DNA of 64,000 bases from positions 32,001-96,000 of the IMG/VR virus record IMGVR_UViG_3300018080_000121. One strand, written 5' to 3'. How positions within the stretch are numbered: the first letter of the stretch is position 1; each line of letters opens with the position of its first letter. This DNA is from a virus. Positions 31,517 through 63,745 of the stretch are shown here, piece by piece. The position numbers and the translations under genes are program-made. A model generated the notes under the pieces. The model made no database searches. It was not told where the DNA came from and worked only from the letters and a program-made list of their open reading frames with translations.

Positions 31517-31711
31517 ATGCGACGACCCAATCCTTATGGTATTGGTCCAGTTCCAATATTTGATCCATGTGAAAAATGTGTGATTAAAATGTGTTGCTCA
31601 TATCTTTGTGAAGAGAAGATCAAATATGAAGGAGCAAAAGTACCACCAATAAAAACTAGAGTATACACGAAAGGAAAAAGAATAAAATGCGTAAAAAAGC
31701 GGATTTCGTAA
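31517..31711 (+). CDS. PCxxC-x5-C-x3-C family small protein (copy 3)
   Basis: DPCEKCVIKMCCSYLCEE. Confidence 0.6.
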   Translation: MRRPNPYGIGPVPIFDPCEKCVIKMCCSYLCEEKIKYEGAKVPPIKTRVYTKGKRIKCVKKRIS

Positions 31712-32022
31712 CCAACAGTAGTTCGACGTCATATATCTTGACGGATAAGGAAGGTAGAATTGATCCACAGGGTAAGATGTTGATCGATTTGAAGAAGCAA
31801 GCGGATCTGACTGTGATTACGACAGAGATCTTGGACGAAATTGAGAAAAATGGATTCTATAAAATTGGTCAGTATTCCAGAATTGAACTGGATGAAGGTG
31901 AACTTGAAAACGCCAGATTTGTGTTGTCGCACGGCGAGAAGGTTTACTGGATTGATGTATATGACGATCCAGCATGGTTTATTCCCAGTGGAGTAGTTGC
32001 TCAATGTGTAAATGATTATTAG
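31687..32022 (+). CDS. DFVTNSS-motif family protein (1)
   Basis: N-terminus MRKKADFVTNSSSTSY. Confidence 0.8.
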   Translation: MRKKADFVTNSSSTSYILTDKEGRIDPQGKMLIDLKKQADLTVITTEILDEIEKNGFYKIGQYSRIELDEGELENARFVLSHGEKVYWIDVYDDPAWFIPSGVVAQCVNDY

Positions 32023-32030
32023 GAGGGGAA

Positions 32031-32387
32031 ATGAGAAAGAAAGCTGATTTTGTAACGAATAGTTCGTCAACATCTTATATTGTGCATATTCCAGTTGATT
32101 TTACCTTGGATGCACATACAGAAGATATCAAGCAGTCGATTCTTGATTGGGATGGAGAAGTGAATGAAAAACGAATTGAGAAAGTAAAAGATCAGCTCCA
32201 TGAGTTGATGAACTTGAGTGGTCGAATGTATGAGTATGATAATCGCATTGAGATGGTAGCGCTGAGGGATCTATTCCATAAACTAGATTTCATAATTGAT
32301 GGAATTGATGTCGGATCTGATATGGGCGTACTTGTAAATATTAACACACTCAAGGCAAGACAAAAGATCGAAAAGATCGGAGCTTAA
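32031..32387 (+). CDS. DFVTNSS-motif family protein (2)
   Basis: N-terminus MRKKADFVTNSSSTSY; same 16 aa as copy 1 but different codons. Confidence 0.8.
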   Translation: MRKKADFVTNSSSTSYIVHIPVDFTLDAHTEDIKQSILDWDGEVNEKRIEKVKDQLHELMNLSGRMYEYDNRIEMVALRDLFHKLDFIIDGIDVGSDMGVLVNINTLKARQKIEKIGA

Positions 32388-32388
32388 T

Positions 32389-33393
32389 ATGAAAGCTATT
32401 GTAATAGCGGACATCCATTTGAGTATGTACTCAAATGATCCAGTGGTTGAAGGGATCTCCATGAGACTGTTCTATTTGAATAGTGTCTTGAGAAGAATCG
32501 CAGACTATGCGATTAAACATAAAATTGATATCATCATAATTGCTGGTGATATCTATCACACAAAGAGTTCTATCCATGCGGTTGCTCAGGACGTTCTTCT
32601 TGAATATGTGAGAGACTATCAGGATCTTCTCTTTTATGTAATTGATGGAAACCATGATATGTCTTCCAAGTCTGGTAAGGGAGTGTCTGGGTTAAAGTGT
32701 TTGGACAATGAACCAAATGTGTATATGATGCACGAGCCAACGATGGTCGAGAACATCTTCTTTGTTCCGTGGAATGCGAAAACGATGGTTGAGACTGTGA
32801 AGAATGGACAAGCTGATTATCTGATATCTCATTTCGGATTAAATGAAGCGATGTTGAATAGCGGAATCTCAATTATTTCTGATCTTGGAATGAAGGATCT
32901 GGCGCATTATAAATGGTGTCTTCTTGGACATTATCACATGCCACAAGAGTTAGGGAATGTGATAATTCCAGGATCAATTATCCAGTTGGATTGGGGCGAG
33001 AAGCATGAGGAGAAACGATTTATAATTCTTGACACAGATAAGCATACGTGGAAGTCTGTTCCTACACAGGGTTATGTTGAACACCATGCACTTGAACTTA
33101 CAGATGAAAATAAAGAAGATGTTCTCAAACTCGCGCGTAAGTTGAAAGACAAGGGCCATCAAGTTAAGATTAATCGAATGACAGTCGGTGTAGATATGGC
33201 TGAATTGCAGGATGAGTTTGTGGTAGTTGATAAAGTCGAGAAGGATATCACAAATCGTGGTATTGACTCATCCATGTCAATGTCTGATATCTTCAAGAGA
33301 TATATGGAGATTGAAGGAATACCAAAAGAGAAGTGGCCTGCATATGAAGCTATGGCGGTGAAAATTGTGAATACAGCAAGGGAGGGTTTATGA
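32389..33393 (+). CDS. sbcD: SbcD/Mre11/gp47-like metallophosphoesterase nuclease
   Basis: IADIH, AGDIYH, DGNHD, SHFG, LLGHYH, PGSIIQLDWGE. Confidence 0.9.
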   Translation: MKAIVIADIHLSMYSNDPVVEGISMRLFYLNSVLRRIADYAIKHKIDIIIIAGDIYHTKSSIHAVAQDVLLEYVRDYQDLLFYVIDGNHDMSSKSGKGVSGLKCLDNEPNVYMMHEPTMVENIFFVPWNAKTMVETVKNGQADYLISHFGLNEAMLNSGISIISDLGMKDLAHYKWCLLGHYHMPQELGNVIIPGSIIQLDWGEKHEEKRFIILDTDKHTWKSVPTQGYVEHHALELTDENKEDVLKLARKLKDKGHQVKINRMTVGVDMAELQDEFVVVDKVEKDITNRGIDSSMSMSDIFKRYMEIEGIPKEKWPAYEAMAVKIVNTAREGL

Positions 33394-33905
33394 AATTCCA
33401 AGTAAAATTTGAGGCTCCTGGTGACGGAAGATTGACAGAGGAACCTCCTGGAGAGATTGGAATTGACATGGTGGATATGATTAGAGATGAACTCAATCGA
33501 CCAAATCTTGACGTAGATCTGATTAATGGAGAGATTCAATGTCCAAGATATCGTTCATCTTACTATGTCAATGTTACTGAAGCAACAGCGAGAACCATCT
33601 CATTATTCTCGGGAAGAAACAAGGTAACAGTTAAAGTTCCAGATAGCTATCTGTCAAAATATGAGAACTTTATCTTTCGTGAAACCTTCTATGATCCGGT
33701 GAATAATGTTCTTGAAATGTTTCGGGTATGGGTATTACGGCGACCAAAAAAATTGACTTGTGTATTTCCCCACTATGAACTAAACGAACAGTGGTTGATT
33801 GAGGATTGGAAGGAAGCTGGATGTCCTCTCAAGTGGGGATTCAATGGGGAAAATGGTTCGAACGCAAAGAAGTTAGCGGAGAAGAAGAATGGGAAAAAAA
33901 GTTGA
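33390..33905 (+). CDS. Hypothetical protein inserted between sbcD and sbcC
   Basis: 171-aa ORF with GGGAGG RBS. Confidence 0.65.
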   Translation: MKFQVKFEAPGDGRLTEEPPGEIGIDMVDMIRDELNRPNLDVDLINGEIQCPRYRSSYYVNVTEATARTISLFSGRNKVTVKVPDSYLSKYENFIFRETFYDPVNNVLEMFRVWVLRRPKKLTCVFPHYELNEQWLIEDWKEAGCPLKWGFNGENGSNAKKLAEKKNGKKS

Positions 33906-34191
33906 TCTAGGTGGGACAGAAAAAGGAGCGCCACCTCAAAAACAAAAGATGATCTATTTTGGTATACCCACAACCATTGCGATGATGATGGACATATACA
34001 CATACGAACCTGCAAAGAGATATGTTGACGCAATGAAACAAACTCTACTCAGTTCTGTAAGTCTCAAAGAGTTGAGAAAAGAGATTTGTACAATGTTTGG
34101 TATGAAGAGTATGAGAAAACTCAAAAAGCAACGAGAGAACCAGGCGAAAATCTTAACTGCGATCTTTGGTGATCGTATATGGGGTGAATGA
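33889..34191 (+). CDS. Hypothetical basic protein
   Basis: 100-aa ORF in the tightly packed operon. Confidence 0.55.
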   Translation: MGKKVDLGGTEKGAPPQKQKMIYFGIPTTIAMMMDIYTYEPAKRYVDAMKQTLLSSVSLKELRKEICTMFGMKSMRKLKKQRENQAKILTAIFGDRIWGE

Positions 34192-36392: not shown

Positions 36393-36530
36393 TTATGTTA
36401 TGTGGTTTATTAAATCTCCACCCGGACTAGAAGCTGCTGCAGGAATTTTGAACGGGGTTATAGCAACGTTTTATCTACTTGTTATAATCGTTGGATTTTA
36501 CTTTATCGGGTTAACATTTTGGGAGGTTCT

Positions 36531-37480: not shown

Positions 37481-37730
37481 ATATGGCTTTCACATATCTG
37501 AATACAATGGAGTTTGGAAGTGGACAGTAAGGGACCAACATGGCGTAGAACTTGCGATGAGTCCACGACATGGGTTTGCATCTGCTGATGCTGCAGTCGA
37601 AGCAGTGAAAGAACTCATAAATTTTATCATTGACAATGGGTTCAATATCCCTGTAACCGTGTACAAAGAAGGATTGGAGAATGATAGACAAAATACAAAT
37701 AGTGAGTTGGCTACTGACGCGGCGGTGTAA
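37458..37730 (+). CDS. YegP/DUF1508-like small protein
   Basis: WKWTVRDQHGVELAMS..GFASADAA resembles the WrWrl.a.NG.ila.Segy.s..aa pattern. Confidence 0.5.
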   Translation: MMGWRESRYGFHISEYNGVWKWTVRDQHGVELAMSPRHGFASADAAVEAVKELINFIIDNGFNIPVTVYKEGLENDRQNTNSELATDAAV

Positions 37731-38715
37731 CCTCAAATGTTCCTATTGTGCGATTACCAGGAACTATAAAGGAAAACCAGATCAGTATCCTGATATGAAG
37801 CACTACTTGGAAAATGAGATGGACACCAAAACAGTGATTGAAATTCTCAGGAGAATAAAGGCTCATAACCCAGATGCATTCCATATTCTTTATGGGGGCG
37901 AGCCGCTCTTGAGAAAAGATCTTCCGGAGATTGTGAACTTCTGTAACTCAGAAGATATCCATTACACAATCATAACCAATAACTCTGACGAGGTCCAACC
38001 ATTACTGGAAAAACTCTTGGTTGAGACCGACTACGTAACTGGTTTGACATCTTCTGTAGATCCTCTAGTTGAATCTGAGGACCCTGAATCCGACCGTTAT
38101 AAGAAATGTGTCGCAGGGTTTAATCGGTTGGGAGAATACAGAGATGTCATTAAAGATGTCGTTGCTGAAATAACCGTTGATAATAACAACGTTGGACATC
38201 TTTATAATCTTGTTGCTATGCTCACAAAGATGGGAGTTAATAGCGATATAACTTTCATTGATATTGCGAAGAGTCCGTACTATGACTTTTCAAATGTTAC
38301 AGATGAAGGACTGTTGGTTCCCCAATCGGATGAGTTGAGTCTACAATTTGATAAGATTATAGATGATAAACTCGACGTACATATGGCGGATAAACTACTC
38401 CCAGAAATCTTTAAAATCTTACCGTCGGATATGGATTGTGGTATTGAAAACAATATCCATAACATGACCATTGACGCAGATGGATCAGTAAGATTATGTT
38501 TGAGAATTCGAGGAGTACAAACTCCAAAATTTAAAGCAATTGATCAGTTTTCACCCGATGGAAAACTTATGGCTGCATCTCTTAGAAAGTTCATAAAGCA
38601 TGATAAAGACATATACTGTAGGGGTTGTAATTGGACCTGTATGTTGATGTCACGGATGCTTTCAAGGAGAAAAGATACAGTCCAGAATCTAGTCCATCGG
38701 GATAGGAGGAAATGA
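37681..38715 (+). CDS. Radical SAM protein with C-terminal Cys cluster (MoaA/PqqE-like)
   Basis: LTRRCNLKCSYC, YGGEPLLRKDL, IITN; C-terminal C..TIDADGSVRLC..CRGCNWTC. Confidence 0.9.
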   Translation: MIDKIQIVSWLLTRRCNLKCSYCAITRNYKGKPDQYPDMKHYLENEMDTKTVIEILRRIKAHNPDAFHILYGGEPLLRKDLPEIVNFCNSEDIHYTIITNNSDEVQPLLEKLLVETDYVTGLTSSVDPLVESEDPESDRYKKCVAGFNRLGEYRDVIKDVVAEITVDNNNVGHLYNLVAMLTKMGVNSDITFIDIAKSPYYDFSNVTDEGLLVPQSDELSLQFDKIIDDKLDVHMADKLLPEIFKILPSDMDCGIENNIHNMTIDADGSVRLCLRIRGVQTPKFKAIDQFSPDGKLMAASLRKFIKHDKDIYCRGCNWTCMLMSRMLSRRKDTVQNLVHRDRRK

Positions 38716-39020: not shown

Positions 39021-39216
39021 AGTAGATGACCTGTCAATAGAAGTATTTACCAATGTTGACATTGTTCCATATCTAAAATACCATGCAGAGAACAACCCAA
39101 ATGTTTTAGATGTGGGTGCATTTGCGATAGCAGTTTTTAAAAATATGAAAGACTTCATAAAGGAGAATTACGGGGAGGTGATAGAGGATGGGAGTGTACC
39201 TGGACGAGATTCTTGA
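39010..39216 (+). CDS. Small hypothetical protein
   Basis: 68-aa ORF with GGAGG RBS. Confidence 0.5.
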   Translation: MADKVDDLSIEVFTNVDIVPYLKYHAENNPNVLDVGAFAIAVFKNMKDFIKENYGEVIEDGSVPGRDS

Positions 39217-39553: not shown

Positions 39554-39558
39554 AGATT

Positions 39559-42048
39559 ATGGAAGAGATTGTTATGAATCCATACTTTGCCAGCTTGGTA
39601 ATCTCTGATGAATCAAGCGACACTTCAGACAAAACTAAAAAAACATTCACTCCATTTAAACGGCTTAAATTGATAGATACGCCGGACTTTTTTCGTGGAA
39701 TGAATGGTACCCACATGGAGAGGGAAATTCTTCCGAGGAATTGCAGAATTGTACATGACCTTCCCAATACCAGTGAGAAAATAGTTGTTATTGAGGAAGA
39801 GCCGGGTGTCCGGAATCTGAGATTTGCTGTTGGATTCCAGGGGACTTTAGACTCGCTAAAAAATGCTGGTTATGATGATATGTACCAGTATCTCAGCGAA
39901 AATGTAAAGAGTAGAAATGGAGAATATACCTTGCAGGTGTCAATGCCATTTGTAGTAGTGGTTATGTTTATTCAAAACTACATTGCCACTTCAGTGCAAG
40001 TATTCTTTCGAATGCGACCCCTTACAAGTTATTCTGATTCTCTGTACTATGCAAACCTCCTCAACATTCCAGACAGTCAGTATATATGTCTTGGTAATCG
40101 ACCCCCAAGTTATCGTGAACCAGATAATCTCTATGATGCTTGTACTATTGAGCTTGAAAGATTCTGGAACACAGCATATAACATGGATTACTACCACAAC
40201 TACAAGATGTATGAGCGGGATGTTCCGGAAGTCTGTAATCCGCTTGTGTGGCATTATAATACTGTGATTGATCCCATGTTTATCTACACAGTTCCGTGGA
40301 TCATCTATCCTAAAACGATAGGTGAAACAATAGATGATATGGCGGGTGGTAGAACACAAGGAATCCCATCATACGACAAACTAAGGGAGATATTCTATCG
40401 ACCAATCAAAGCACAAACAAGACACAAAACCCACTATAAAAATACAGCTCAAGAGTTAGCTATTAAAAATAGTTACCTTTGTGTTGGGGATAACATTACA
40501 ATAGGAAAGAAAGAATACATTGTTGCATCTTTTGTCGGTACTCCTGGTCATAGACCTACGAGGGTAATCCTACAGGGTGCTGATGGGAAAACGACAGAAG
40601 TATCCATTACACAAAAATTCAAAAATGAAATCCAGAAGCAGAGATCTGCATCGAAAGAAGTCAAGTCGGTTCAGATTGGTGATCAGAAGATCAGTACCAA
40701 TGACTTGATTGTGATCAAGTCAAGATATGCTGGAAAGATTTTTAAGAAGGTACATGTAATTCGAGTCGCCAGAGATGGTAAAATAGAAGCAAGACTTGGT
40801 AGTGATTACTATCTTCTTGAGAATTTGGAATTCGATGTTGTGGATATGTCTAACGTTGAAGTTAACGGGATTAAGGTTGACGCAAATAAGACCTATGTTA
40901 TCCTGAAAGCGGATTATGGTCAAGGTCCTACGTTCCAAAAGTATGACGTAAAGCTTGACAGTTTTGATTCCAATGGGGCTAACATGAGAGCCTTGTTTAA
41001 GAATGTTATGACCGGAAGTAGGATTGCAATTGATCTAAATCCAACAGGTACGCCAGTATATAAGTTGTCGGATAGTAAAGACACTTATATAACACCTCCT
41101 GTATTTAGATATGCCGACTCTCTTGTAACCAACTGGAAAGACGGTGGTGTTGATGGTTATGGTCTCATTCCTGGTGAAGGAATAGTGGCCTACGATGGCG
41201 GTGGTTATTATAGAGATTATAAAAGGACTACCGCAAAGAGTAATATCCTGAGCGAGGATAAAACTGAGATTCATATTCCTAGCTTCGATGGAGATATTTA
41301 CTTCAAAGTTGGGGATGCTGTAGTTCATGCGGACTGGAACAATCCTGAGAACATGTTGAAAGTCTGCACTATTGCTCTGTTTAAAGAGCAACTTGGGTCG
41401 TTGTATATTGTCATGACGACTCTTGATGGAAAAGAAGTATTTGAAACCGAGTTCATTGATTTTGAACGAGGACGGATCAGACCTGGTACTGTCCGACACA
41501 TTGTAGCAAAATGGGATAAATGGAAAGCTGGTGATAAACTTAGAGCAAAAGTTGGTCGTATTCCAGCATTTCCAAAGAAGGATGTCAACACAATCGTTGG
41601 GTTCTTACCTGATACAGGTAGAGATATCCCTCAAATTTTGATGTCAAACGGGTGTACCCTCTGGATGGACGAAGAGACGATGAACAACTTTGAAGTCCTT
41701 CGTAGGGGAACAGCTGCTTGTGCAAAGCAGAAAAATGCTCCAATGCAACTGGACAAAATTAAGTGGCAACCGGGCGATCTGGTGGTAAGGGATGGTTCGA
41801 TTGGAATGATTAACCGGCATGAAGGAAGACGGTCCTTGAGAGTGACTGTTACTGAAAGGAGGGCAGGCTTTACGTACAATTATCCAACAAGGAAAAACTT
41901 AGTCAGGTATGGTTTCCTGATACCAAGACGGACGCAACAACATCAATACATGGGAACTGGATTTCCTGTATTTCCTAACTTCCATGGTTGGTATACTGTT
42001 GCGGAAAGGAGTCCAATGCATGTATCGGAGGACGTGAACAATGTTTAA
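39559..42048 (+). CDS. Prokaryotic E2 family D-like domain fused to repeated SH3/KOW-like barrels
   Basis: SMPFVVVV..VFFRMRPL..LYYANLLNIPDSQYICLG..FWNTAYNMD (cf. E2-D P..N....g.iC.G..Fw.s.fn); later repeated xxGDxV units; directly upstream of JAB, E1 and Ubl genes. Confidence 0.65.
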   Translation: MEEIVMNPYFASLVISDESSDTSDKTKKTFTPFKRLKLIDTPDFFRGMNGTHMEREILPRNCRIVHDLPNTSEKIVVIEEEPGVRNLRFAVGFQGTLDSLKNAGYDDMYQYLSENVKSRNGEYTLQVSMPFVVVVMFIQNYIATSVQVFFRMRPLTSYSDSLYYANLLNIPDSQYICLGNRPPSYREPDNLYDACTIELERFWNTAYNMDYYHNYKMYERDVPEVCNPLVWHYNTVIDPMFIYTVPWIIYPKTIGETIDDMAGGRTQGIPSYDKLREIFYRPIKAQTRHKTHYKNTAQELAIKNSYLCVGDNITIGKKEYIVASFVGTPGHRPTRVILQGADGKTTEVSITQKFKNEIQKQRSASKEVKSVQIGDQKISTNDLIVIKSRYAGKIFKKVHVIRVARDGKIEARLGSDYYLLENLEFDVVDMSNVEVNGIKVDANKTYVILKADYGQGPTFQKYDVKLDSFDSNGANMRALFKNVMTGSRIAIDLNPTGTPVYKLSDSKDTYITPPVFRYADSLVTNWKDGGVDGYGLIPGEGIVAYDGGGYYRDYKRTTAKSNILSEDKTEIHIPSFDGDIYFKVGDAVVHADWNNPENMLKVCTIALFKEQLGSLYIVMTTLDGKEVFETEFIDFERGRIRPGTVRHIVAKWDKWKAGDKLRAKVGRIPAFPKKDVNTIVGFLPDTGRDIPQILMSNGCTLWMDEETMNNFEVLRRGTAACAKQKNAPMQLDKIKWQPGDLVVRDGSIGMINRHEGRRSLRVTVTERRAGFTYNYPTRKNLVRYGFLIPRRTQQHQYMGTGFPVFPNFHGWYTVAERSPMHVSEDVNNV

Positions 42049-43219
42049 TGTATGGATCAACGACGGTACAACTGAAATGCCTACTGACGATATTCTATAT
42101 ATCGTAGCGAAAGATGGGATATTCTTAAAGAAGAAATTAGGTTTCTTTGAGAGTATTGCGAAAGTGGACCAAATGTCTATTTTGAAAGATGTAGATCCTT
42201 ATGCGACGATGGACATTAAACCAATACCAAGAAAGAAATTTGCTCAAATCATTTCATTCTATCGTGAAGTGGCTAAGCAATTTTCTGGTGAGGCGATGAC
42301 CATTTTACATTATAACCCGAAACGAAAAAGGTTTAGAATTGAAATCCCTGACCAGGAAGTTTCGGGTGGTGGTGTTGGATGGGAAAGTTTGGAAAGCTAC
42401 AAGGGTTATGTTCGAATCGGTTCAATTCATAGCCACAATCATATGTCCGCTTTCCACTCAGGAACGGATGATAACGACGAATTCAATTGGGATGGAATTC
42501 ATATCACGATTGGAAAAGTCGGGAATCCAAATGTTGACATTTCAGCGTCATTAGTGTTTAACGGAACCAGGTTCATGATTGACCCATGTGATTATGTAGA
42601 AGACTTGGAAATGGTAGAATCCGAGGCTTCATATGTAGGTCCAAAGACCTATAAATGGGAAGGTAATAAGCTGGTACCAGCAAACGACGCTGCTAAGAAA
42701 ACAGTTACATTAGGATATCGAATCAAAAATGAAAGGGCTAAGGAAAGGAAATTCCCTTCTACCTGGTTGAAGAATGTGAGTAAATGGATGCCGAGAACTC
42801 AACCAAATCAGGGAATTTATTCAGGTGGTGTCAATGGTATTGTTGGACCGGCTCGACAACCATGGCAGCATAATCCACATGGAAATCCTTATTGGGGAAG
42901 GTTCCATCAAGGTCGTCATAATGGTCGACAAGCTCTCTTGAGACGACAATTTAATACAGGAAATAATCATGATCAGGTCGCTGCTCAGGAAGGAGTCAGT
43001 TTTGACACAGCTTATGAACCCGGGGATCCAATGGATTGGGATCCATGTGAAAACTGTCCGTATTGCAACTATAAATCCAACCAGTTGCTTATGGATCTTA
43101 TTAACCAGTTGGATTTGGATGAGGACCAGTTAGCACAGCTTGGGCTTACTGAAGAAGAAGATGACAATCCATTAGCGGGTGAATACGATGGAGGTGAAGT
43201 GTATGTTGGGGGACCGTAG
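42041..43219 (+). CDS. JAB/MPN+ metalloprotease (prokaryotic deubiquitinase-like)
   Basis: YIVAKDGIF N-terminal motif, GEA, GSIHSHNHMSAFHSGTDDNDE (HxH-x7-S-x2-D). Confidence 0.9.
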   Translation: MFNVWINDGTTEMPTDDILYIVAKDGIFLKKKLGFFESIAKVDQMSILKDVDPYATMDIKPIPRKKFAQIISFYREVAKQFSGEAMTILHYNPKRKRFRIEIPDQEVSGGGVGWESLESYKGYVRIGSIHSHNHMSAFHSGTDDNDEFNWDGIHITIGKVGNPNVDISASLVFNGTRFMIDPCDYVEDLEMVESEASYVGPKTYKWEGNKLVPANDAAKKTVTLGYRIKNERAKERKFPSTWLKNVSKWMPRTQPNQGIYSGGVNGIVGPARQPWQHNPHGNPYWGRFHQGRHNGRQALLRRQFNTGNNHDQVAAQEGVSFDTAYEPGDPMDWDPCENCPYCNYKSNQLLMDLINQLDLDEDQLAQLGLTEEEDDNPLAGEYDGGEVYVGGP

Positions 43220-46613: not shown

Positions 46614-49325
46614 ATGCCATCTTTGTTAAACTATAACCAGTTCTGTGAAGAACTAAAAGAAGTTACAACAACAAAGATTATTGACAAGAAGAAGTTCCAT
46701 GCTGAAGGTCTGTTCTCTGAACAGATCTTTGGTCCTGTTAAGAACTATACTTGTCAATGTGGGACATATTATGGAATCTCTGGAGCAGGTGGTACGTGTA
46801 AAGATTGTGGGGTCGACGTTGTAAATAGTAATGAACGACGTCGAAGATTTGCTAAAATTGTATTACCAATACCAGTGGTCAATCCAGTCTTTTATGATCT
46901 GTTGATTGACCTTGGTGGTAATATGATTAAAGATGCGATCACCCAATTGCTTAGAGATGAAAAAAGTGTCCTATATTGGCATGAGGATGAAGAAGAATTT
47001 AGGATCACAGATGAGGAAAATATAGAAGCTGGTACCGAGATTTTTAGAGGTACCGCTGCTGTCAAAGAAATGATCCAAGTTCTTGCAGATAAACTTGCGG
47101 AAGAAGACGCTGAGGGATGGGATATAGTTCTCGATAATATCGATCAATTGGTTATAGAATATGTCATTGTATTACCTCCGGACCTAAGACCTGCATCTAG
47201 AGGTGTTACACAAAATGACCAAGTGGTTGATAAAATCAATAGATTCTATACTCAGATCCTAACAAAGAAAGAAGCTATGAGGGATACAATTTTGGATGTC
47301 AGACGAGATCCAACTTTGTATTACAGCTATGCAAAACAACTCCAGAAGGATGTCAATGAGTTATACACGCATATTCTTGATAAGTTGTCAAAAAAGGAAG
47401 GGTTGATTCGCGGAAATATTCTTGGGAAGAGAATAGATTTCTCGGGTCGAGCTGTCATTGTGCCATCACCGACACTCAATTTTGATGAGTGCTCACTTCC
47501 GTATGCTATGTTTCTAGAATTATTCAAACTGAGAATTGCTAAAAAGTTAATTCAGTTGGAAAAATTCAAACTTCTGAATGACGCCATTGACTTTGTAGAT
47601 GAATGTATAGAGCTGAAAATTCCGGTTCTATTTAAGATCTGTGAAGAGATGGCGGAAGGTGAAGTATGTTTGTTAAATAGACAACCCTCGCTCCACAAAT
47701 TAAGCATGTTGGGATACTACATTAAAGTATCTTTGGATAATGTAATTAAGATACACCCATTGTCATGTCCACCATTCAATGCTGACTTTGATGGTGACCA
47801 GATGGCGGTATACATCCCAATCACACCGGAGTCAAAACAAGAAGTAATTGATAAACTCCTGGTTACTAGAAATTTAAGTAACCCATCAAATGGAAGTTTG
47901 TCAACTGTTCCAAGCCAAGATATGGTTCTTGGAGTTTACTCATTAACAACTGGATACTTCAAAGAATTTAGTGCCTTGATAGATTGTAAAGGAGAGCAAA
48001 TAACTGAAGGTATGAAACTTTTCAACGATTGCTTACCTGAAGATTATCCTCTTGTAAATGAGTCTGTTGGTGGAAAACGTTTGGTAGAAATACTGAACGA
48101 TATAAACACAAGATACGAACCTGAAGAAGTAATACGAGTCCTTGATAACATTAAATTTCTTGGGTTTAAGTACTCAACATTATTTGGTGCAACTCTTTCT
48201 CTGAACCATTGTTATATGGAAGAGGCGGTGAACATCAGGGAAGGGTTATATGAGAGTGACTCGATTGTTGAACAGGTGAGTAAAGTATCAGGCGATGAAA
48301 CAACTCAATTACTGAAAGACAACTTCCATTATTCTTATATGATTGAGTCTGGAGCAAGAGGTAGTTGGGATCAGGTTCGACAAATAGTCTTAACCAGAGG
48401 GTTTATCTCAAACTTTAATGGCGAGATTATTACAGAACCTATCAAGAATAGTTTCATCAGAGGATTAACCCAAAAAGAGTTCTTCAACTCTACGTATGGT
48501 AGTAGAAAAGGTCTCCTTGACGTTGCGTTGAACACTGGAACTTCAGGTTACCTTTCTAGAAAATTAATCTTCGCTTGCGCAAATCTCCAGATAGATCAAA
48601 GTTTGGATGATTGCGGAACCCAAGACTTTCTTGATGTGTATGTTGATACACCAAAGAAAGCAAAAATGTTGGTTGGTAAATGGATGAAGACTGATGGTGG
48701 ACTCATGTTAATTACCGAAGACAATTGTATGACTTTGGTCAGCGAGTTGATCCAAGTTAGGAGTCCAATCTTATGTCAATCGGAAAGATTATGTTGTAAA
48801 TGTTACGGTGAGTTGTATAAGACTCTTGATACAAGATTTGTAGGAGTTATAGCAGCGCAATCCCTTGGAGAATGTAATACTCAGTTAGTATTGAGAACAT
48901 TCCATACGAGTGGTGTAGCACAGCTAAATAAGGACAACGATGCAGAAGATATGAAGCAACAAGATATTGTTAGTGATCTATCAACTGTATCCAGACTCCT
49001 ACACCAGTTCAATAAGAGTACAAAATATGATGAGTTGACTCATAATCTTTTCACAAATTACAACCATCGACGTACAATACATCATACACATTTTGAGTGT
49101 GTTGTGTCACAGCTTATGTGGAGTGGAGTTCAAAAGTGGAGATTGGTAAAAGATCGAGACAAAGCAAAGCTTGAATTCCACAGTGTCCAGACAGTTCCAT
49201 CTTATGAATCGTGGTTGATGGGACTGGCGTTTTCAAATCCAAAGAAACACATCATTAAAGGTATCTTACATTCTGGTTTGTATAAGGGTGTAATGGACAA
49301 GATCTTATGTGGTGAAAGCGTATAA
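46614..49325 (+). CDS. rpoC: RNA polymerase 2 beta' subunit (single ORF, probable non-virion RNAP)
   Basis: GLFSEQIFGPVKNYTCQCG..CKDCG Zn ribbon, LPPDLRP, LGKRIDFSGRAVI, LNRQPSLH, NADFDGD, GSRKGLLDVALNTGTSGYLSRKL, LRTFHTSG. Confidence 0.96.
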   Translation: MPSLLNYNQFCEELKEVTTTKIIDKKKFHAEGLFSEQIFGPVKNYTCQCGTYYGISGAGGTCKDCGVDVVNSNERRRRFAKIVLPIPVVNPVFYDLLIDLGGNMIKDAITQLLRDEKSVLYWHEDEEEFRITDEENIEAGTEIFRGTAAVKEMIQVLADKLAEEDAEGWDIVLDNIDQLVIEYVIVLPPDLRPASRGVTQNDQVVDKINRFYTQILTKKEAMRDTILDVRRDPTLYYSYAKQLQKDVNELYTHILDKLSKKEGLIRGNILGKRIDFSGRAVIVPSPTLNFDECSLPYAMFLELFKLRIAKKLIQLEKFKLLNDAIDFVDECIELKIPVLFKICEEMAEGEVCLLNRQPSLHKLSMLGYYIKVSLDNVIKIHPLSCPPFNADFDGDQMAVYIPITPESKQEVIDKLLVTRNLSNPSNGSLSTVPSQDMVLGVYSLTTGYFKEFSALIDCKGEQITEGMKLFNDCLPEDYPLVNESVGGKRLVEILNDINTRYEPEEVIRVLDNIKFLGFKYSTLFGATLSLNHCYMEEAVNIREGLYESDSIVEQVSKVSGDETTQLLKDNFHYSYMIESGARGSWDQVRQIVLTRGFISNFNGEIITEPIKNSFIRGLTQKEFFNSTYGSRKGLLDVALNTGTSGYLSRKLIFACANLQIDQSLDDCGTQDFLDVYVDTPKKAKMLVGKWMKTDGGLMLITEDNCMTLVSELIQVRSPILCQSERLCCKCYGELYKTLDTRFVGVIAAQSLGECNTQLVLRTFHTSGVAQLNKDNDAEDMKQQDIVSDLSTVSRLLHQFNKSTKYDELTHNLFTNYNHRRTIHHTHFECVVSQLMWSGVQKWRLVKDRDKAKLEFHSVQTVPSYESWLMGLAFSNPKKHIIKGILHSGLYKGVMDKILCGESV

Positions 49326-49341
49326 CGAAGGAGGTTGGATC

Positions 49342-52300
49342 TTGAACATCATTAATCCGCACTACAAATTGCGTGAACAGAACATTTTCTCCATAAGAGA
49401 CCAAGAATATGCAGCGCTCCTAGAGACAGTAAGACAAATTCTAATCCCGGCTGAAGAGCTGGGATTTGAACTTACTGACTGTAGGATAAAAGATTCGAGG
49501 TTCTCAACTGGAGAGATTTCTAGAACTTTAAAACAGAACCTAGTCATTCGATTACAAAAGGGAGCGTCAAAGATTGACCTCTCAATGCAAATTCCAAAGC
49601 TCGTTGATGGGAATTATATCATCATAAACGGGAGGAAGAAAATTCCCCAATTTCAATTGTTTGATATTCCAGTTGTTACAAGGGGAAAGAGTATCAAAAT
49701 CAGGACTAATGTAGCGACAATTATGATCATTGAGCAGAAGGAAGCTCCCTTTACATACATCAGTATTCTTGGGAGAAAAGTCCCGTTGTTTCTGGTTATC
49801 TTTGGTTACTATGGAATTGAGCCTGTTGCGCAGAGGTTTAATCTTCCAACACTTCAAGTAAGCGATACCAACCTGGACACAATGTATGACCGACTGCTTT
49901 ATGACATGAAAATGTTCTATGATAGTTCTCGGGGTACTACACAAGATGATATCATCAAAGAAATTGGTAGATATTACTCAAAGTACAATGCTAGAGTTAA
50001 GGGTGAAGATTTGATGTATGCTCTTGACTTAATCCTTGATACAGATGTAATGTCTGCTTGCTTCTTTAGGACCGGGTCCATTCTAGAAGAGATTCTAGAT
50101 GTAATGCAAAACGGTCCATTGGATGATACGTTAATTACAAACAAGAGGATTCGATGTTTTGAGTATGTCATCCTCGCAAAGGTCTCTAAAGCTGTATTTG
50201 ATCTCTGTATGTCAAATCGTACAGCTAGACAACCGAAATTCAATGTAAACTCAACTGCGATTTTATCTGAGTGTAATGTATCGGATATAGTCCAGTTTGA
50301 CTTTTCTATTAATCCAATCGACGAGCTGACCAAACTAAGTAGAACTAGTCTTGTAGGTCCTGGTGGTTTTAACAGACAAAATGTACCAGAGCATCTAAGA
50401 GATATTATGCCTACAATGTTTGGACGGTTATGTCCAGTTGACACACCTGACCGAGATAATTGTGGAGTTCTCCAGAACTTAGTTCCAAATGCAATTTTAG
50501 ATGACAATTTAAAGTTTTCTGAAGAGTATTTGGAGAAACAACCAATCTCAATAGCGGTGTCAATGGTTCCATTTCTTGAGCACGATGACCAAACTCGACT
50601 CCAGATGTCAGCTTCACAGATGCGTCAAAGTATTATGTTAAAGAACTTCGACCAACCAATGATCCAGTCTGGTTGTGAAGGGTTGTATACAGACAAGACA
50701 CAATTTGTAAAGGTAGCAAAGAAAAATGGAGAAGTCGTACATCTCGATCACAACTATCTCATCTTGCTTTATGATGACAAGACCGTAGATATATTCGATA
50801 TCTCATATCGAAAGATTTACATCTCAAACCTTGATGTATACAAAGTTTATGTACAACAAGGGGATAAAGTCAAAGCAGGAGATATTCTGGCTGAGAGTTA
50901 TTTTACAGATAATGGAAAGATTAACATTGGTAAAAACCTGTTAACTGCTGTTGCGGAATACTATGGGTATAACTATGAGGATGGAATTGTCCTATCTGAT
51001 AGAGTTGTAAAAGAGGGAATGTTCACATCTGTACATTTCATAGATTTATCCTTTACCCTTCCGCCAAATAAAGTTCTCCTAAGTCTTTCACAAGATGAGT
51101 ATAAACCCCTTCCAGGTGTAAGGGAAAGGGTTTCTAAAGGAGAACCATATATGATTACCAAGGAAATGCCTTCTATACAGATGGATTACAAAAGCATTTT
51201 TAAGAAGGAACGTCCGGTATTAGCTAAATCGGATATGATTATCACCGAGGTAAACATGTTTGCAAACTCATGGAATAAAGAAATACCACAGTTTGATAAA
51301 TGGATGGAAAAGAAGTTAACGCAACAGCAAAAGCAAGAAGAGAAAATTGCTAACATCGTTGGGGAATATCTTTCCAAAGAAGATACAACTAGATTCGTAA
51401 GGGATCATGATCTTGCGAAATATGGAAATATTGGAAAGTATAAATTCAAAGGTGAATACATTAACGGTGTCCGAGTAGAGATGTTTGGAATCTTCTTCCG
51501 ACCAATCCAAATCGGTGACAAAATTGGAAATCGTCATGGGAATAAGGGAGTTGTATCTACTATTGTACCACAAGAGAAAATGCCACAACTACCTGATGGG
51601 CGACACGTAGATATTTGTATTAATCCGCTTGGTATTATAAGCCGGATGAATATTGGGCAAGTTTATGAACTCCATTTAGGCATGGCTCTATATGACTTGA
51701 GGGAAACTCTGAAAGCAATTCTTGATGGACGGGAAAAGAATTCAGCAGAATTAGATGACGCAAAACGTCAAGAACTTGCAAAAAGATTTCTCCTTGGATT
51801 TATTGAGTTGGTTGATAAAACTGACGAACATTGGTATTATGACCAATATGTAGAACATCTTCCAGAAACTATCGACGAGAAGTTTATTGATAACATTGTT
51901 CTCCTACAACCTCCATTTGAGTCGATGAATATGTCTGAGATGAAGGAAGCATTGGAGTACACAGGCACAAAGTTTGAGTACCCACTATTTGAACCGATGG
52001 CTGGACAGAACATTCAGAATGAGATTGCTGTGGGTTATTTGTACTTCTTTAAGATGGTACACATTGCTGAGACTCGTCTTGCTGCAAGAGGAATTGGATC
52101 CTACACAAGGAAGACACTTCAACCTTTAGCAGGAAGAAAGAATCGAGGCGGTCAGAGAATGGGTGAAATGGAAACAGGGTGTCTCATTGGACATGACGCT
52201 CCAGTTAACTTAGCAGAATGTCTGACAACCAAGTCAGATTGTACTGATAAGAAGAACCAATATATCCGAGATGAAATTGACACGGGTATGAAACTGGAAG

Positions 52301-52374
52301 AGGAAGGTGACAATGTAGCAGAATCTGTCAAACTTCTGAAAGCGTATCTTACGACAATAGGAGTAAGGATGTGA
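49342..52374 (+). CDS. rpoB: RNA polymerase 2 beta subunit (single ORF)
   Basis: TTG start after AGGAGG (ORF track from 49309); [68 protein letters not shown]. Confidence 0.96.
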
Positions 52375-55289: not shown

Positions 55290-55292
55290 GAG

Positions 55293-56355: not shown

Positions 56356-56365
56356 GAGGAATTGA

Positions 56366-58665: not shown

Positions 58666-58683
58666 AAGGAGGGAATAGAAGAA

Positions 58684-59424: not shown

Positions 59425-59446
59425 ACGTCGACACCTCCTCCCATAA

Positions 59447-59475
59447 GGGCGGGTAGACTAGTCACCTACCCGCCC
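59447..59475 (+). promoter_or_regulatory. GC-rich 10-bp hairpin, no U-tract
   Basis: GGGCGGGTAG-ACTAGTCAC-CTACCCGCCC in the gap before the PolB-like gene. Confidence 0.7.
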
Positions 59476-59493
59476 GACTCCAAAAGGTGAAAT

Positions 59494-60216: not shown

Positions 60217-60228
60217 AAGGAGGTTAAG

Positions 60229-60972
60229 ATGTGGTCATGTTTGAAGGACCAACTTCTAGCTATTCTCTGTGTAGTTCTATTTAGTTTCATGTGTGCTGCT
60301 TGCGATTCATACTCTGAGGGTGATGAGCTAGCAAACAAAGCATTTGAAAAAATGACTGAACAGGAGAAAACATACTACAGTAAAGTTCAAGACGCGTGGG
60401 GAGAGAAGTATCTCACATTTATAAGGGCTGCTATTCGAAAGAGAATGTACAAACCAGATGAGTCATCTATTCCGTTTGGAGATATTCCTAAACTTATAGT
60501 ATCTACAAATGATGTGACAATGACAATTGAAGAATCATGGACAGGAGACACAAGAAAGAGACGAGGCGCAAATAAGTTTAGTGAAATTGATGGTAGGTGG
60601 TATGACAAGATTCGAACTCTTGCTACAGGCGGCGAGAAGGAAGACTCTTGGAAGAAACAATCTTACAAACCTGCTAAACAAGAACCGCCGCCAGTTTCAG
60701 AACCAATGTATGTTGACTCGTTTGTAGTATCTTCACCGCCACCAAGGGTAGAGGAATTCGAAGAGGGTGTTCAATATGATATGGACGATCTTCTTCCTGA
60801 TGATGAATATCTGGATTTAAAACTACAGATTTCTAAATGTCCTTTGGCGAAGGCTTATCTGTCAAAGGTAGTGAGGAGTGGTCGACCGATTACCCTGAAG
60901 GATAGGGATGTAATGGTTGAAAAAGCTCTATATTGCAAGAGTGTTGCGTTGAACAATTCATTTGCGGAATAG
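60229..60972 (+). CDS. Predicted lipoprotein
   Basis: Hydrophobic signal LLAILCVVLFSFMCAAC followed by D; lipobox-like CAAC. Confidence 0.55.
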   Translation: MWSCLKDQLLAILCVVLFSFMCAACDSYSEGDELANKAFEKMTEQEKTYYSKVQDAWGEKYLTFIRAAIRKRMYKPDESSIPFGDIPKLIVSTNDVTMTIEESWTGDTRKRRGANKFSEIDGRWYDKIRTLATGGEKEDSWKKQSYKPAKQEPPPVSEPMYVDSFVVSSPPPRVEEFEEGVQYDMDDLLPDDEYLDLKLQISKCPLAKAYLSKVVRSGRPITLKDRDVMVEKALYCKSVALNNSFAE

Positions 60973-60984
60973 AAAGGATAAGGT

Positions 60985-61980
60985 ATGATTAAGGAAATCA
61001 AAACAAGTAAATATAGGATTTCATTTAACACAGAAACCGGGGAAGAAGAATTGGAAGGGATTAATGGAAACGACGATCCCTTTTCTCTGGAATTTCCGAG
61101 TATGCTGGACATTGGAATTATGGGTAGCTGTCCGAATAAATGTAAGATGTGTTACCAAGGAGATAAGGTGGAGCCACATATGACTCTGGATCTGTTCAAA
61201 CAAATCATTGACGAAGCAAAAGATGGTACATGTCAATGTGCGTTGGGTGGTCGTGGAGATCCAAATCTTCATCCGCAATTCGAGGAGATCATTAAATACG
61301 CATGTGAAAATGGTGTGATTCCAAACTACACTACCAGCGGTAATGGTCTTACAGATGAACAAATAGAATCATCCAAAAAGTATTGCGGAGCTGTTGCTGT
61401 TAGCGACTATGGAAAGGAGTTCACATTCTCAGCTTTAAACAGACTGATGGATGCAGAAGTCAAAACAAATATTCATCTAGTCTTTTCTGCGCCAAACTTC
61501 ATGAAGTCGATAGCCATTTTAGATGGTCAAGATGCATGGAGTGGTCGTGTCAATATAGAGAAGTTAAATGCTGTGATATTTCTCTTGTTTAAGCCACAAG
61601 GTCGTGGTAGAGATTTGGAGAAATGGATTCCAACTGATCTCATGCTGGAATTATTCAGCTATGGAATTGCACTTCCAAAAACGAAATTTAAAGTTGGGAT
61701 GGATAGCTGCTTAGTAAACCATATCATGAGGTTTAGAAAACTCAACAAGTTGGAACAGGAGTACGTTGACACTTGTGAGGGTGCAAGGATGAGTTGTTAC
61801 ATTACACCAGATGGGAGACTTGTTCCTTGTTCATTTGGAAACCATGATGAATATGGAAGTGATATTAAACATCACGGAATAAGGAGAGTATGGAATGACG
61901 GACTTGCATTCAAAGGATTCAGAAAGACTCTTAGATCAAGACCAAATCAATGCCCTTTTGAAACGGACGGTTGGCGTTAG
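60985..61980 (+). CDS. Radical SAM/SPASM-type enzyme
   Basis: DIGIMGSCPNKCKMCYQG, ALGGRGDP, PNYTTSG; C-terminal CEGAR.SCYITPDGRLVPCSF..CP. Confidence 0.92.
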   Translation: MIKEIKTSKYRISFNTETGEEELEGINGNDDPFSLEFPSMLDIGIMGSCPNKCKMCYQGDKVEPHMTLDLFKQIIDEAKDGTCQCALGGRGDPNLHPQFEEIIKYACENGVIPNYTTSGNGLTDEQIESSKKYCGAVAVSDYGKEFTFSALNRLMDAEVKTNIHLVFSAPNFMKSIAILDGQDAWSGRVNIEKLNAVIFLLFKPQGRGRDLEKWIPTDLMLELFSYGIALPKTKFKVGMDSCLVNHIMRFRKLNKLEQEYVDTCEGARMSCYITPDGRLVPCSFGNHDEYGSDIKHHGIRRVWNDGLAFKGFRKTLRSRPNQCPFETDGWR

Positions 61981-62167
61981 AGCAATTGGTCATGGGTTGA
62001 TTGGTCTTGGAAAAGGATTAGCTTCCCTTGGTATTTGCGCAGTAGCACTATATGTCATCAAATATCATTATGAAGATATAAGTCTATTTTGGACAGCGGT
62101 GATGGGAGGTGGTCTTATCGCGGGCATTTGGAAGTTTGATTGGGATTGGAATGGAGGGATATTTTAA
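61895..62167 (+). CDS. Small membrane protein
   Basis: AAGGAG ~8 nt upstream; two hydrophobic helices; 5' end overlaps the radical SAM gene by 86 nt. Confidence 0.5.
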   Translation: MTDLHSKDSERLLDQDQINALLKRTVGVRAIGHGLIGLGKGLASLGICAVALYVIKYHYEDISLFWTAVMGGGLIAGIWKFDWDWNGGIF

Positions 62168-62179
62168 AAGGAAAGAAAA

Positions 62180-62458
62180 ATGAAGAAAAAACTAGACTTT
62201 GTTACCAACAGTTCGTCATCCAGTTTCGTAATAAGTTTATGTGATCTATCTCCAGTCCAGCAATTTGCTATCATGAATTATAAAGATTTTTGTGAATGTT
62301 TGGGTTGGGATGATTTCTATATGGCTGGCGACGACAACTGGAACATCGTATCTGGCGTATCCGAAATAAAGGGTACTACTTTCATGGACAATTTTGATAT
62401 GTACCAGTTCTTCGAGAGACTTGGAATTGACATGGAGAAAGTGAGGTGGAGTTCATGA
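62180..62458 (+). CDS. DFVTNSS-motif family protein (4)
   Basis: MKKKLDFVTNSSSSSF. Confidence 0.8.
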   Translation: MKKKLDFVTNSSSSSFVISLCDLSPVQQFAIMNYKDFCECLGWDDFYMAGDDNWNIVSGVSEIKGTTFMDNFDMYQFFERLGIDMEKVRWSS

Positions 62459-62823
62459 GAAAGAGATTAGACTTTGTTACCAACAGCTCAACTTGTAGTT
62501 TTCTAATCGTTGGATGGGAGTTGCATAAAAGTCAACTTCCGGACAAATATAAAGACGAAGATGGTTACTTCGATTGGGAACGGACAATGGATGACCAGGA
62601 GAGATTACATATTGAGGTTATGTTAGGTCGTGAGATGGGCGCCAAAGATGACGACCATATGATTGTTGGTGTTGACTGGGGTGGTGGAGATATTGAAGAT
62701 GATACCAAAGAAATCGCTATGAAAGATCTCCTTGAAGTCCAAAACAATGGTGAAATCAGAGAACTTTTTGGGATTCCAAACGGCGTAGATGCGTCTGTAT
62801 TTTTCGGAATAAGGATGTGTTAA
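62455..62823 (+). CDS. DFVTNSS-motif family protein (5)
   Basis: ATG at 62455: MRKRLDFVTNSSTCSF. Confidence 0.8.
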   Translation: MRKRLDFVTNSSTCSFLIVGWELHKSQLPDKYKDEDGYFDWERTMDDQERLHIEVMLGREMGAKDDDHMIVGVDWGGGDIEDDTKEIAMKDLLEVQNNGEIRELFGIPNGVDASVFFGIRMC

Positions 62824-62824
62824 C

Positions 62825-63376
62825 ATGAAACGAAAAGCCGATTTCGTAACTAATAGTTCGAGTACATCATTTACATTTATATTCAAAGGAACTGATAAGA
62901 AACATCTCTTTGATCTTCTCCTAGCCAGAAAACAACTATTTGATCTACATTACGAGTCTGAGTGGGATGATGAAGGAACAGTTCATGAATGCACCGTAGA
63001 GGATGTGATTGCTGCACTTGACAAGTTCTTGAGTGGCAGACTCTCCAGTCTGGACTTTAGTGGAAAGGTTGAATATATCAATGACCTTCTAGCTAGGAGG
63101 ACTGCAGATATTCGATCTTGGGAAGAAATGTATGAGGATGATGTGGAGGATTGGGAGCAGAAGTGGATTACTGATAGTATCTCTGAGATAAAACAAATCA
63201 TCGGATTAATTAAGGGCGCTAAAGATCGAGGTCTTCTCTCAGTCGTTCAAATGGGTTTTGGAGATAACCACGGCGAAGTTTGGGGCGATGGACTCGGAGT
63301 CGTAATGGATTATAAAGGAAGGAGGATATTTGTGAATGACGACGATCTCGTCATATTTACAGAACAAAATAGGTGA
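62825..63376 (+). CDS. DFVTNSS-motif family protein (6)
   Basis: MKRKADFVTNSSSTSF. Confidence 0.8.
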   Translation: MKRKADFVTNSSSTSFTFIFKGTDKKHLFDLLLARKQLFDLHYESEWDDEGTVHECTVEDVIAALDKFLSGRLSSLDFSGKVEYINDLLARRTADIRSWEEMYEDDVEDWEQKWITDSISEIKQIIGLIKGAKDRGLLSVVQMGFGDNHGEVWGDGLGVVMDYKGRRIFVNDDDLVIFTEQNR

Positions 63377-63379
63377 TTC

Positions 63380-63745
63380 ATGAAAAAGAAAGCAGATTTC
63401 GTAACTAATAGTTCCTCAGCGTCATTTGTGATGATCTTGCAAGCTACAAATGAGAATATTGATGTTGAGGACTTTCGAAAGAACTTTAACGAGTACTTAG
63501 AACACTATATGAAAGAAACTACGTACTCAAGAGAAGGTAAGAACAACATGCACTTTTGGGAAGCACTCCAGGTTCATGCTGGAGCCGTTCCAGGTGTTTT
63601 CAAGGTGTTAGATGGTACGTCAATGTACAATTGTCAAGATGACATTCCAAGGTACATGAGAGATATGTTAGTGAGACATCACATTGGCGGATTTTTGGAT
63701 TACGGGTTTAAACTAATTGACTTTTCAGTCGAACGAGACAGTTAA
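63380..63745 (+). CDS. DFVTNSS-motif family protein (7)
   Basis: MKKKADFVTNSSSASF. Confidence 0.8.
   Translation: MKKKADFVTNSSSASFVMILQATNENIDVEDFRKNFNEYLEHYMKETTYSREGKNNMHFWEALQVHAGAVPGVFKVLDGTSMYNCQDDIPRYMRDMLVRHHIGGFLDYGFKLIDFSVERDS

Follow-up and report, generated by a model that had tools for sequence, protein, structure and literature searches.

Introduction

Why should proteins with no evident similarity to one another begin with the same short peptide, and has that peptide anything to do with the radical S-adenosylmethionine (SAM) enzymes encoded nearby? The question is raised by a 64,000-nt stretch of viral DNA, hereafter the window, which corresponds to bases 32001–96000 of the IMG/VR record IMGVR_UViG_3300018080_000121 (121,292 bp, 37% G+C). 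A previous sequence-only reading had noticed seven divergent window proteins with a common N-terminal leader, here termed the tag, four of them arrayed behind a radical SAM/SPASM gene, and had proposed that one phage maturase modifies a conserved Asn-Ser-Ser site in a polymorphic protein set. Our analysis, based on sequence comparison and predicted structures, favours, with a probability of roughly 0.6, the reading that a dedicated radical SAM enzyme recognizes otherwise unrelated proteins by the tag, which would serve as their address and probably also as the site of reaction.

Tagged proteins and enzymes of the source genome

The open reading frames (ORFs) in question are listed below, with coordinates referring to the window unless preceded by a locus identifier (L). 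The part of each tagged protein from residue 18 onward is referred to as its body, and bodies were grouped into clusters (m).

31687–32022, + strand: tagged copy 1, 111 aa; body cluster m0, which also holds the subfamily ending in GEGGY (assigned from ORF, tag and clustering)
32031–32387, + strand: tagged copy 2, 118 aa; body cluster m12, with orthologues in L010, L013, L015 and L017
36531–37127, + strand: tagged copy 3, 198 aa; body cluster m5, with a G-D-G-W-D-G-G-D-P-M-G-type motif
37681–38715, + strand: radical SAM enzyme T1, 344 aa; PF04055 at 50.1 bits (cut-off 29.5)
60985–61980, + strand: radical SAM/SPASM enzyme T2, 331 aa; PF04055 at 37.4 bits (cut-off 29.5); phrog_7293
62180–62458, + strand: tagged copy 4, 92 aa; body cluster m3, with an M-D-N-F-D-M-Y motif
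62455–62823, + strand: tagged copy 5, 122 aa; body cluster m18, ending in IRMC; tag with SST instead of SSS
62825–63376, + strand: tagged copy 6, 183 aa; body cluster m2, ending in TEQNR; modelled with AlphaFold (see below)
63380–63745, + strand: tagged copy 7, 121 aa; body cluster m4
L001:1901–2308: tagged copy 8, just past the window
L001:4281–4649: tagged copy 9, just past the window, with a TTG start

All seven previously reported ORFs were found on the + strand with the tag at residue 1, in the form M-[KR]-[KR]-[KR]-x-DFVTNSS[ST]-x-S-[FY]. The count of seven holds for the window only, as the whole genome encodes nine copies, which are together covered by the consensus M-[KR]-x-[KR]-x-DFVTNSS[ST]-x-S-[FY]. 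When the nine copies are aligned with one another, M1, D6, F7, V8, T9, N10, S11, S12 and S15 are the sole invariant positions. Scanned in six frames, the 121,292-bp genome contains DFVTNSS solely at residue 6 of tagged ORFs, the chance expectation for one seven-residue word in ~240,000 translated positions being ~2e-4. Among the nine copies, synonymous codons vary at almost every tag position, with serines encoded by AGT, AGC, TCA, TCG and TCC, and most copies possess their own Shine-Dalgarno-like sequence. Accordingly, selection acts on the peptide and not on a DNA repeat, as had been claimed. The spacings previously given as about 200 and 550 nt were measured as 199 nt from the stop of the T2 gene to the start of copy 4 and as 554 nt from the end of copy 3 to the T1 gene, and copies 4–7 are closely packed, with gaps or overlaps of at most 4 nt.

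Co-occurrence of tag and enzyme

With the tag as the sole criterion, we collected loci from IMG/VR, 185,579 species genomes and JGI metagenomes and searched them for homologues of T1 or T2. Such a homologue was found in 20 of the 24 loci with at least 3 kb on each side, mostly less than 800 nt away and in either gene order. In loci from prokaryote assemblies, which represent six lineages (Thermoplasmatales, Promethearchaeota, Tepidanaerobacteraceae, Prevotella, Edaphocola and Geopsychrobacteraceae), the enzyme gene abuts the tagged gene in six out of six, again in either order. Viral loci carrying the G variant of the tag, described below, encode an enzyme in eight of nine cases, and for the ninth, a T2-like gene is located elsewhere on its 160-kb contig, at a distance of 2 kb from a different cluster of tagged genes. 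Each near-complete phage genome examined likewise contains an enzyme homologue, so that the motif was not found to be common in genomes lacking these enzymes.

Clustering of the neighbouring ORFs yielded T2 (52 loci) and T1 (13 loci) as the only recurrent families besides ordinary phage replication genes, and no protease, transporter/exporter or other partner recurred beside tagged genes. T2 typically heads arrays of tagged genes (more than 40 loci), while T1 typically follows directly after a tagged gene of cluster m8, m14, m5 or m1 (~12 loci). Copy 3 belongs to one of these upstream subfamilies, and the same order of m5 and then T1 is also found in L019. Each genome encodes one or two enzymes (T2 and/or T1) and between one and eleven tagged proteins.

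The pairing extends to cultured phages. A tblastn search of 50,697 records retrieved a T2-like enzyme (~28% identity) in 168 and a tagged protein in 175, from the same genera, namely Slopekvirus and Pseudotevenvirus, with KP15, Matisse, RB16, RB43 and Lw1 among their members. In the jumbo Vibrio phage D479, a 12-kb stretch contains five tagged genes along with the enzyme. Searches of the cultured phages by tblastn with copy 6 and with T1 produced zero matches.

The radical SAM enzymes

By their sequences, T1 and T2 are both members of the radical SAM superfamily. T1 has the CX3CX2C motif at C16/C20/C23, with C88, C253, C273, C313, C316 and C320 as further conserved cysteines; T2 has it at C49/C53/C56, after a 45-residue N-terminal extension, together with conserved C134, C242, C264, C282 and C323. 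The cysteines of the motif are kept in all T1 and T2 homologues. T2 further matches the SPASM family PF13186 (25.7 bits, cut-off 21.5), and its conserved C242, C264, C282 and C323 plus C134 make a twitch-like set, a full SPASM domain having a seven-cysteine motif. T1 has no match to PF13186 at E≤1, though C253, C273 and C313-x2-C316-x3-C320 are conserved. The two proteins do not match each other in phmmer and constitute two families. The sequence-only reading is thus supported as regards a link between enzyme and N-terminal site, while its single maturase gives way to two unrelated enzyme families.

When all 17 NCBIfam matches of T2 and the best 25 of the 55 of T1 were inspected, the top entries were the SPASM maturases NirJ2, MftC, PqqE, PapB and CefB, together with viperin, all far under their cut-offs. 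T1 and T2 are undescribed subfamilies, and a literature search retrieved no description of them, of the tag or of their pairing. Prokaryotic viperin was rejected as an identity, given that model NF038283 scores 47.5 bits with T1 and 20.6 bits with T2 against a cut-off of 180, over the N-terminal core only; in PADLOC, pVip scores 21–48 bits over ~100 residues. A radical SAM match on an Escherichia coli plasmid was likewise discarded, its genomic context being unrelated. In one viral contig, the T2 gene is divided between two ORFs ~700 nt apart (L010:4655–5188 and L010:5913–6584), which could reflect an inserted mobile element, an intron or a disrupted gene.

Two tag variants and their concerted change

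The tag exists in two variants, M-K-x-K-x-D-F-V-T-N-S-S-S and M-K-x-R-x-G-F-V-S-N-S-S-S. Of 291 unique tagged genes, 237 have the D6/T9 pair and 47 have R4/G6/S9, and no locus mixes the D..T and G..S forms, even with eleven paralogues. At least ten body clusters hold both variants (m0, m1, m2, m3, m6, m12, m13, m16, m17, m26 and m30); hence, the paralogues predate the switch and each changed its tag alike within a lineage. In the T2 tree, enzymes accompanying D tags and those accompanying G tags form separate clades with a support of 0.98. These clades can be told apart at just six alignment positions, half of which (G44 to E, Q58 to K and H96 to N) flank the SAM-cluster motif. On these alignments, the pattern is suggestive of a shared binding partner as the simplest cause of the concerted change. 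The proposal of a maturase acting through a shared site thereby gains support that it did not originally have: old paralogues altered their tags together, and the tag variant follows the clade of the enzyme. Among cultured phages, the G variant occurs as MKIR-x-GFVSNSSSSSF in gp113 (L105:803–1273, − strand) and gp118 (L105:4658–5173, − strand) of Matisse and in D479 (L118:5134–5532).

The tag family at large and its bodies

A profile built from the nine copies retrieved 1,597 representatives of 50%-identity clusters at E≤1e-3 from 1.84 billion proteins, and in nearly all of them the match begins at residue 1; hundreds of IMG/VR matches were also obtained. No member of the family has a Pfam annotation. 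For a sample of 494 unique members, the bodies fell into 56 BLAST clusters, and the tagged proteins range from 73 to 480 aa in length. Comparison of the 16 largest body clusters with hhalign revealed one clear pair (12 and 14), the others giving at most 82% probability and mostly a few percent or less, with a weak signal in a C-terminal Gly-rich region that relates cluster 0 to clusters 2, 6, 8 and 15 (33–82%). Tagged proteins of 15 body types had no match above threshold in Pfam, NCBIfam, PHROGs or PADLOC; the sole profile signal was a weak N-terminal match to phrog_7397, a family of unknown function (E 0.02–0.09).

Within each cluster, the C-terminus is conserved up to the stop codon, as in ...GEGGY, ...TEQNR, ...ECWMDN, ...G-x-RMC and ...DDY. 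Related phage contigs share their repertoire of body types and often its order as well, so the window copies belong to old orthologous groups and are not hypervariable cassettes. The dissimilarity of the bodies noted from the window was confirmed by alignment, with almost no similarity among copies other than copies 1 and 9, which share a body cluster. Their description as a polymorphic set does not stand, since each body belongs to an orthologous subfamily conserved in other phages.

Two groups of members deserve separate description. In P0131, P0132, P0135, P0159, P0174 and P0165, two tagged modules are fused in tandem within one ORF, with the internal tag of P0132 lacking the M-K-x-K start; these fusions may mean that a free N-terminus is not strictly needed, or may be merged gene calls. 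A 139-aa tagged subfamily that begins with MKIR[CS]DFVTNSSSASF and ends in DPRD (P0037, P0073, P0078 and P0086) is present in genomes of Methanobacteriaceae, on contigs as long as 3 Mb.

Predicted structures of tagged proteins

Copy 6 (model A, m8d6b718542f8) and copy 9 (model B, m458ac57f9247) were modelled with AlphaFold2 and family alignments. Model A has a predicted local distance difference test (pLDDT) score of 92 and a predicted template-modelling score of 0.87, and model B has a pLDDT of 87. The order of their secondary-structure elements and their topology differ. This, together with the almost wholly negative profile comparison of 16 families, argues against the possibility that all bodies share one fold in which the motif is simply a strand. 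In both models, residues 1–10 have a mean pLDDT of 47–50, while residues 11–20 reach 81–92, and the first strand of model A begins at residue 13. In these predictions, the most conserved residues are a flexible tail and a junction outside the fold core, as expected of a linear docking or reaction motif.

Neither model gave a convincing fold in searches with Foldseek (PDB and BFVD) and VIA-align wide. Matches of model A were limited to a helical hairpin (Z≤8.7), and those of model B (Z≤2.8) included several chains with a nitroreductase fold. Weak, non-significant echoes of that fold were recorded for copy 6 in the ESM Atlas (template-modelling score 0.39) and for copy 9 in VIA-align (Z 2.1–2.6); such echoes in the predicted structures of two body families may hint at a distant common scaffold.

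Bacterial operons with a STAND/NACHT NTPase

The original description of the arrangement as a phage system is too narrow, as tag and enzyme are also present in archaea and bacteria. Several bacteria have an operon composed, in this order, of a STAND/NACHT NTPase (812–898 aa), a small protein (80–140 aa), a tagged protein of cluster m16 (131–136 aa) and T2. It was found in metagenome-assembled genomes of Prevotella, Edaphocola and Geopsychrobacteraceae and, among cultured bacteria, on plasmids in Agrobacterium tumefaciens and Rhodobacter sp. CZR27, at the following positions:

L021:7084–11432, bacterial four-gene operon
L022:189–4484, bacterial four-gene operon
L024:6954–11441, bacterial four-gene operon
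L116:2668–7104, bacterial four-gene operon
L119:1107–5562, bacterial four-gene operon

The NTPase is Avs2-like according to PADLOC and has an N-terminal SMEK domain in most cases; the N-terminus of the Prevotella protein has only a faint TIR/deoxyribosyltransferase-like match, and that of Edaphocola has none. The bacterial cassette contains just one tagged protein. A Rhizobium plasmid encodes a T2 homologue at 72% identity. The m16 family comprises 605 clusters at 90% identity, and its members are 65–75% identical across distant phyla, a spread that, judged from sequence identity, is typical of a mobile element.

The four-gene operon is a candidate defence system resembling KpAvs2-Avap1-Avap2, an anti-phage operon that combines Avs2 with the radical SAM protein Avap1, which is non-viperin-like and of unknown role, and with Avap2, a small Avs2-binding protein of ~130 aa that is DUF6375-like by HHpred (PMC11564622, Béchon et al. 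2024). Compared by its published description, this is the nearest described analogue, with which the operons here have in common a STAND NTPase, a radical SAM protein and a small protein. The NTPases here are shorter (812–898 aa) and have SMEK or TIR/deoxyribosyltransferase-like N-termini. In hmmscan, neither the tagged nor the small proteins matched DUF6375 (PF19902), which in the KpAvs2 paper had been assigned with HHpred, and HMMER gave no match to this family in five genomes or records behind these loci nor in 401 genomes of one phylum.

The early/replication gene neighbourhood of the phage loci and the STAND/NACHT context in bacteria suggest a role in phage–host conflict. A bolder version, which we put forward as a tentative and rather unlikely conjecture, is that the radical SAM-modified tag would be a shared currency of this conflict: large phages would use it to arm unrelated effectors, while STAND/NACHT operons, possibly of the KpAvs2 type, would have adopted the enzyme–tag pair as an activatable effector or co-factor, or as bait that reports phage enzyme activity.

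Proposed mechanism and points against it

In the mechanism that we propose, the portable recognition tag would be a 16-residue peptide, M-K-x-[KR]-x-[DG]-F-[VI]-[TS]-N-S-S-S-x-S-[FY], and its partner a radical SAM enzyme with one or more auxiliary Fe-S clusters. The flexible tail (residues 1–10) would dock in the enzyme by direct binding, and the enzyme would then covalently modify the stretch F7/N10-S11-S12 after translation. As to the chemistry, we can only offer a low-confidence guess, namely that hydrogen is abstracted at a serine Cβ, leading to oxidation like that which yields formylglycine, or that F7 or N10 takes part in a cross-link. The pairing points to an undescribed protein-modification system consisting of an enzyme and a tag, as far as comparative sequence data allow.

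Several observations weigh against this address-and-substrate reading. L016, L086, L089 and L090, which are fragments with 6-kb flanks, contain no enzyme, and some tagged genes, such as copies 1 and 2 and those of Slopekvirus, are located 20–30 kb from it. One recognition mechanism would not readily account for the presence of the same tag beside both T1 and T2, which have only the radical SAM core in common. Neither enzyme reaches any curated NCBIfam or anaerobic sulfatase-maturating enzyme (anSME) model among the matches listed, and a search of both for an RRE (PqqD-like) domain was negative. Because the switch between D and G happened once in evolution, co-diversification of tag and enzyme is statistically inseparable from shared descent. 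Low pLDDT values are common at protein termini, and the body families conserve their own C-termini, so that the reactive site could lie there or be composite.

Alternative explanations

The alternative that survives best, which we nonetheless consider unlikely, regards the tagged proteins as adaptor or specificity subunits, with the tag as the anchor to the enzyme and the bodies either bringing in targets (host proteins, nucleic acids or small molecules) or regulating the enzyme. It would explain the same co-location and co-evolution data, and the presence in each body family of its own conserved motifs and C-terminus is what would be found in functional domains. Moreover, the small accessory of KpAvs2 binds the STAND protein, with the radical SAM protein as a separate accessory (PMC11564622). 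However, eleven alternative subunits per enzyme would be unusual, so this number of tagged genes is a better fit to substrates; the invariant Asn-Ser-Ser and the flexible tail resemble a reactive site more than an interface; and the bacterial cassettes have a single tagged protein and no evident gene for a third-party target save the NTPase.

It is improbable that the motif instead lets the proteins process themselves, for instance by Asn-Ser autoproteolysis or pyruvoyl-type serinolysis, has a catalytic role in them, or forms a phosphate- or metal-binding loop after strand 1, with the radical SAM gene acting separately in the same pathway. An invariant N-S-S followed by a β-strand does resemble the autoprocessing junctions of inteins and pyruvoyl enzymes, and the weak body-to-body similarity in the C-terminal Gly-rich region would agree with a common element, but the uniformity of the tag in each genome across unrelated bodies and its tracking of the enzyme clade would be left unexplained. 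In addition, no common fold was detected, and bodies of proteins as different in size as 73 and 480 aa are tagged.

We consider it quite improbable that the tag has nothing to do with the enzyme and instead serves targeting or assembly, as a signal for capsid targeting, import or degradation, in which case the linkage would be conserved synteny. The pairing persists in bacterial operons of two to four genes, on plasmids and chromosomes, without virion genes and in both gene orders; it spans T4-like, jumbo Vibrio and RNA polymerase-encoding phages; and no protease or transporter co-occurs. What speaks for such a signal is the short N-terminus common to diverse phage proteins, which is reminiscent of the T4 capsid targeting sequence, along with the basic character of positions 2 and 4 and the distance of some tagged genes from the enzyme.

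Finally, gene conversion or recombination among paralogues, creating shared 5′ ends as a DNA-level repeat without peptide function, would give a uniform variant per genome but was rejected as very improbable because codons differ nearly everywhere in the nine copies and in other loci, including TCN versus AGY serines, and because proteins from different phyla conserve the motif.

Comparison with known systems

The address-and-substrate reading has a parallel in the anSMEs (AtsB and ChuR), which are radical SAM enzymes with auxiliary Fe-S clusters, as proposed for T1 and T2. There, in the manner suggested for the tag, one enzyme acts on a short Ser/Cys motif near the N-terminus of many full-length proteins, without an RRE domain and outside any export or protease pathway. 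The sulfatase motif C/S-x-P/A-x-R is, in contrast, absent from the tag, which is placed at residue 1; the tagged proteins comprise at least 56 unrelated body families, as opposed to one sulfatase fold, and T2 keeps only four to five extra cysteines. An outright anSME identity was discarded, as no anSME model was among the NCBIfam matches listed (17 for T2 and the best 25 of 55 for T1) and the tag lacks S-x-P/A-x-R.

Radical SAM/SPASM systems for peptides that ribosomes synthesize and that are then modified post-translationally (RiPPs), such as MftC-MftA, PqqE-PqqA, PapB and the sactipeptide/ranthipeptide synthases, also combine an N-terminal leader with a variable remainder. Those with multiple precursors, as for the prochlorosins, are further alike in having several precursors per enzyme, tight gene linkage, leader–enzyme co-evolution and the best sub-threshold NCBIfam matches. 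They differ in that the tag here has 16 residues and the would-be cores are, in the predicted models, confidently folded proteins of 73–480 aa, with neither conserved cysteines to mark a core nor a C-terminal tyrosine common to all families. A RiPP cluster was consequently rejected, given the lack of RRE/PqqD in the enzymes, of a recurrent protease or transporter neighbour, and of unfolded precursors.

The capsid targeting sequence of T4 internal proteins is likewise a short N-terminal peptide common to unrelated phage proteins. It has no sequence similarity to the tag, which is also encoded in operons outside viruses and whose link is to an enzyme instead of a prohead protease.

Other features of the source genome

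All window genes are on the + strand, and besides those for RNA polymerase β/β′-like proteins they include genes for topoisomerase II, for a helicase and for proteins resembling Mre11 and Rad50. The multisubunit RNA polymerase β/β′-like genes form two separate sets (10191–12530, 14631–18722, 46614–49325 and 49309–52374; PHROG E 1e-20 to 1e-97). This is the arrangement of phiKZ/AR9-type jumbo phages, yet the contig has just 121 kb; the sequence may come from a smaller relative or represent only part of a jumbo phage. A megablast search of the window against phage records produced zero matches, and a scan of the tagged-gene array for sigma-70 promoters and terminators performed no better than on shuffled sequences. 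The remaining features are:

61895–62167, + strand: small hydrophobic ORF, 90 aa, between T2 and the array; absent from the recurrent neighbour families
42041–43219: ORF of 392 aa with a weak match to a prokaryotic JAB domain (E 1e-4, under the Pfam cut-off), downstream of an 829-aa ORF without a family
L001:2321–2932 (genome 98321–98932): class I methyltransferase-like ORF, 203 aa, directly after tagged copy 8

The family of this methyltransferase-like ORF is found beside m1-type tagged genes in 13 loci and may be a further component of the system or mere synteny.

Significance

We propose that the system is a radical SAM maturase with tagged substrates, of unusual breadth and with an unexpected tie to NACHT-type immunity. 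If this is true, it would be a very large and wholly unannotated system of protein post-translational modification (~1,600 clusters at 50% identity), in which folded proteins of dozens of unrelated families would be modified through a 16-residue address. It would be carried mainly by large phages, in sets of up to eleven tagged proteins, with a one-substrate version in bacterial NACHT/STAND operons. Test systems exist in the E. coli phages RB16, RB43 and Lw1, in Vibrio phage D479, and in the Agrobacterium, Rhizobium and Rhodobacter plasmids. The finding would further offer a concrete hypothesis for the radical SAM accessories of Avs-type defence systems and would provide a handle on the function of many early genes of cultured phages that are now annotated as hypothetical.

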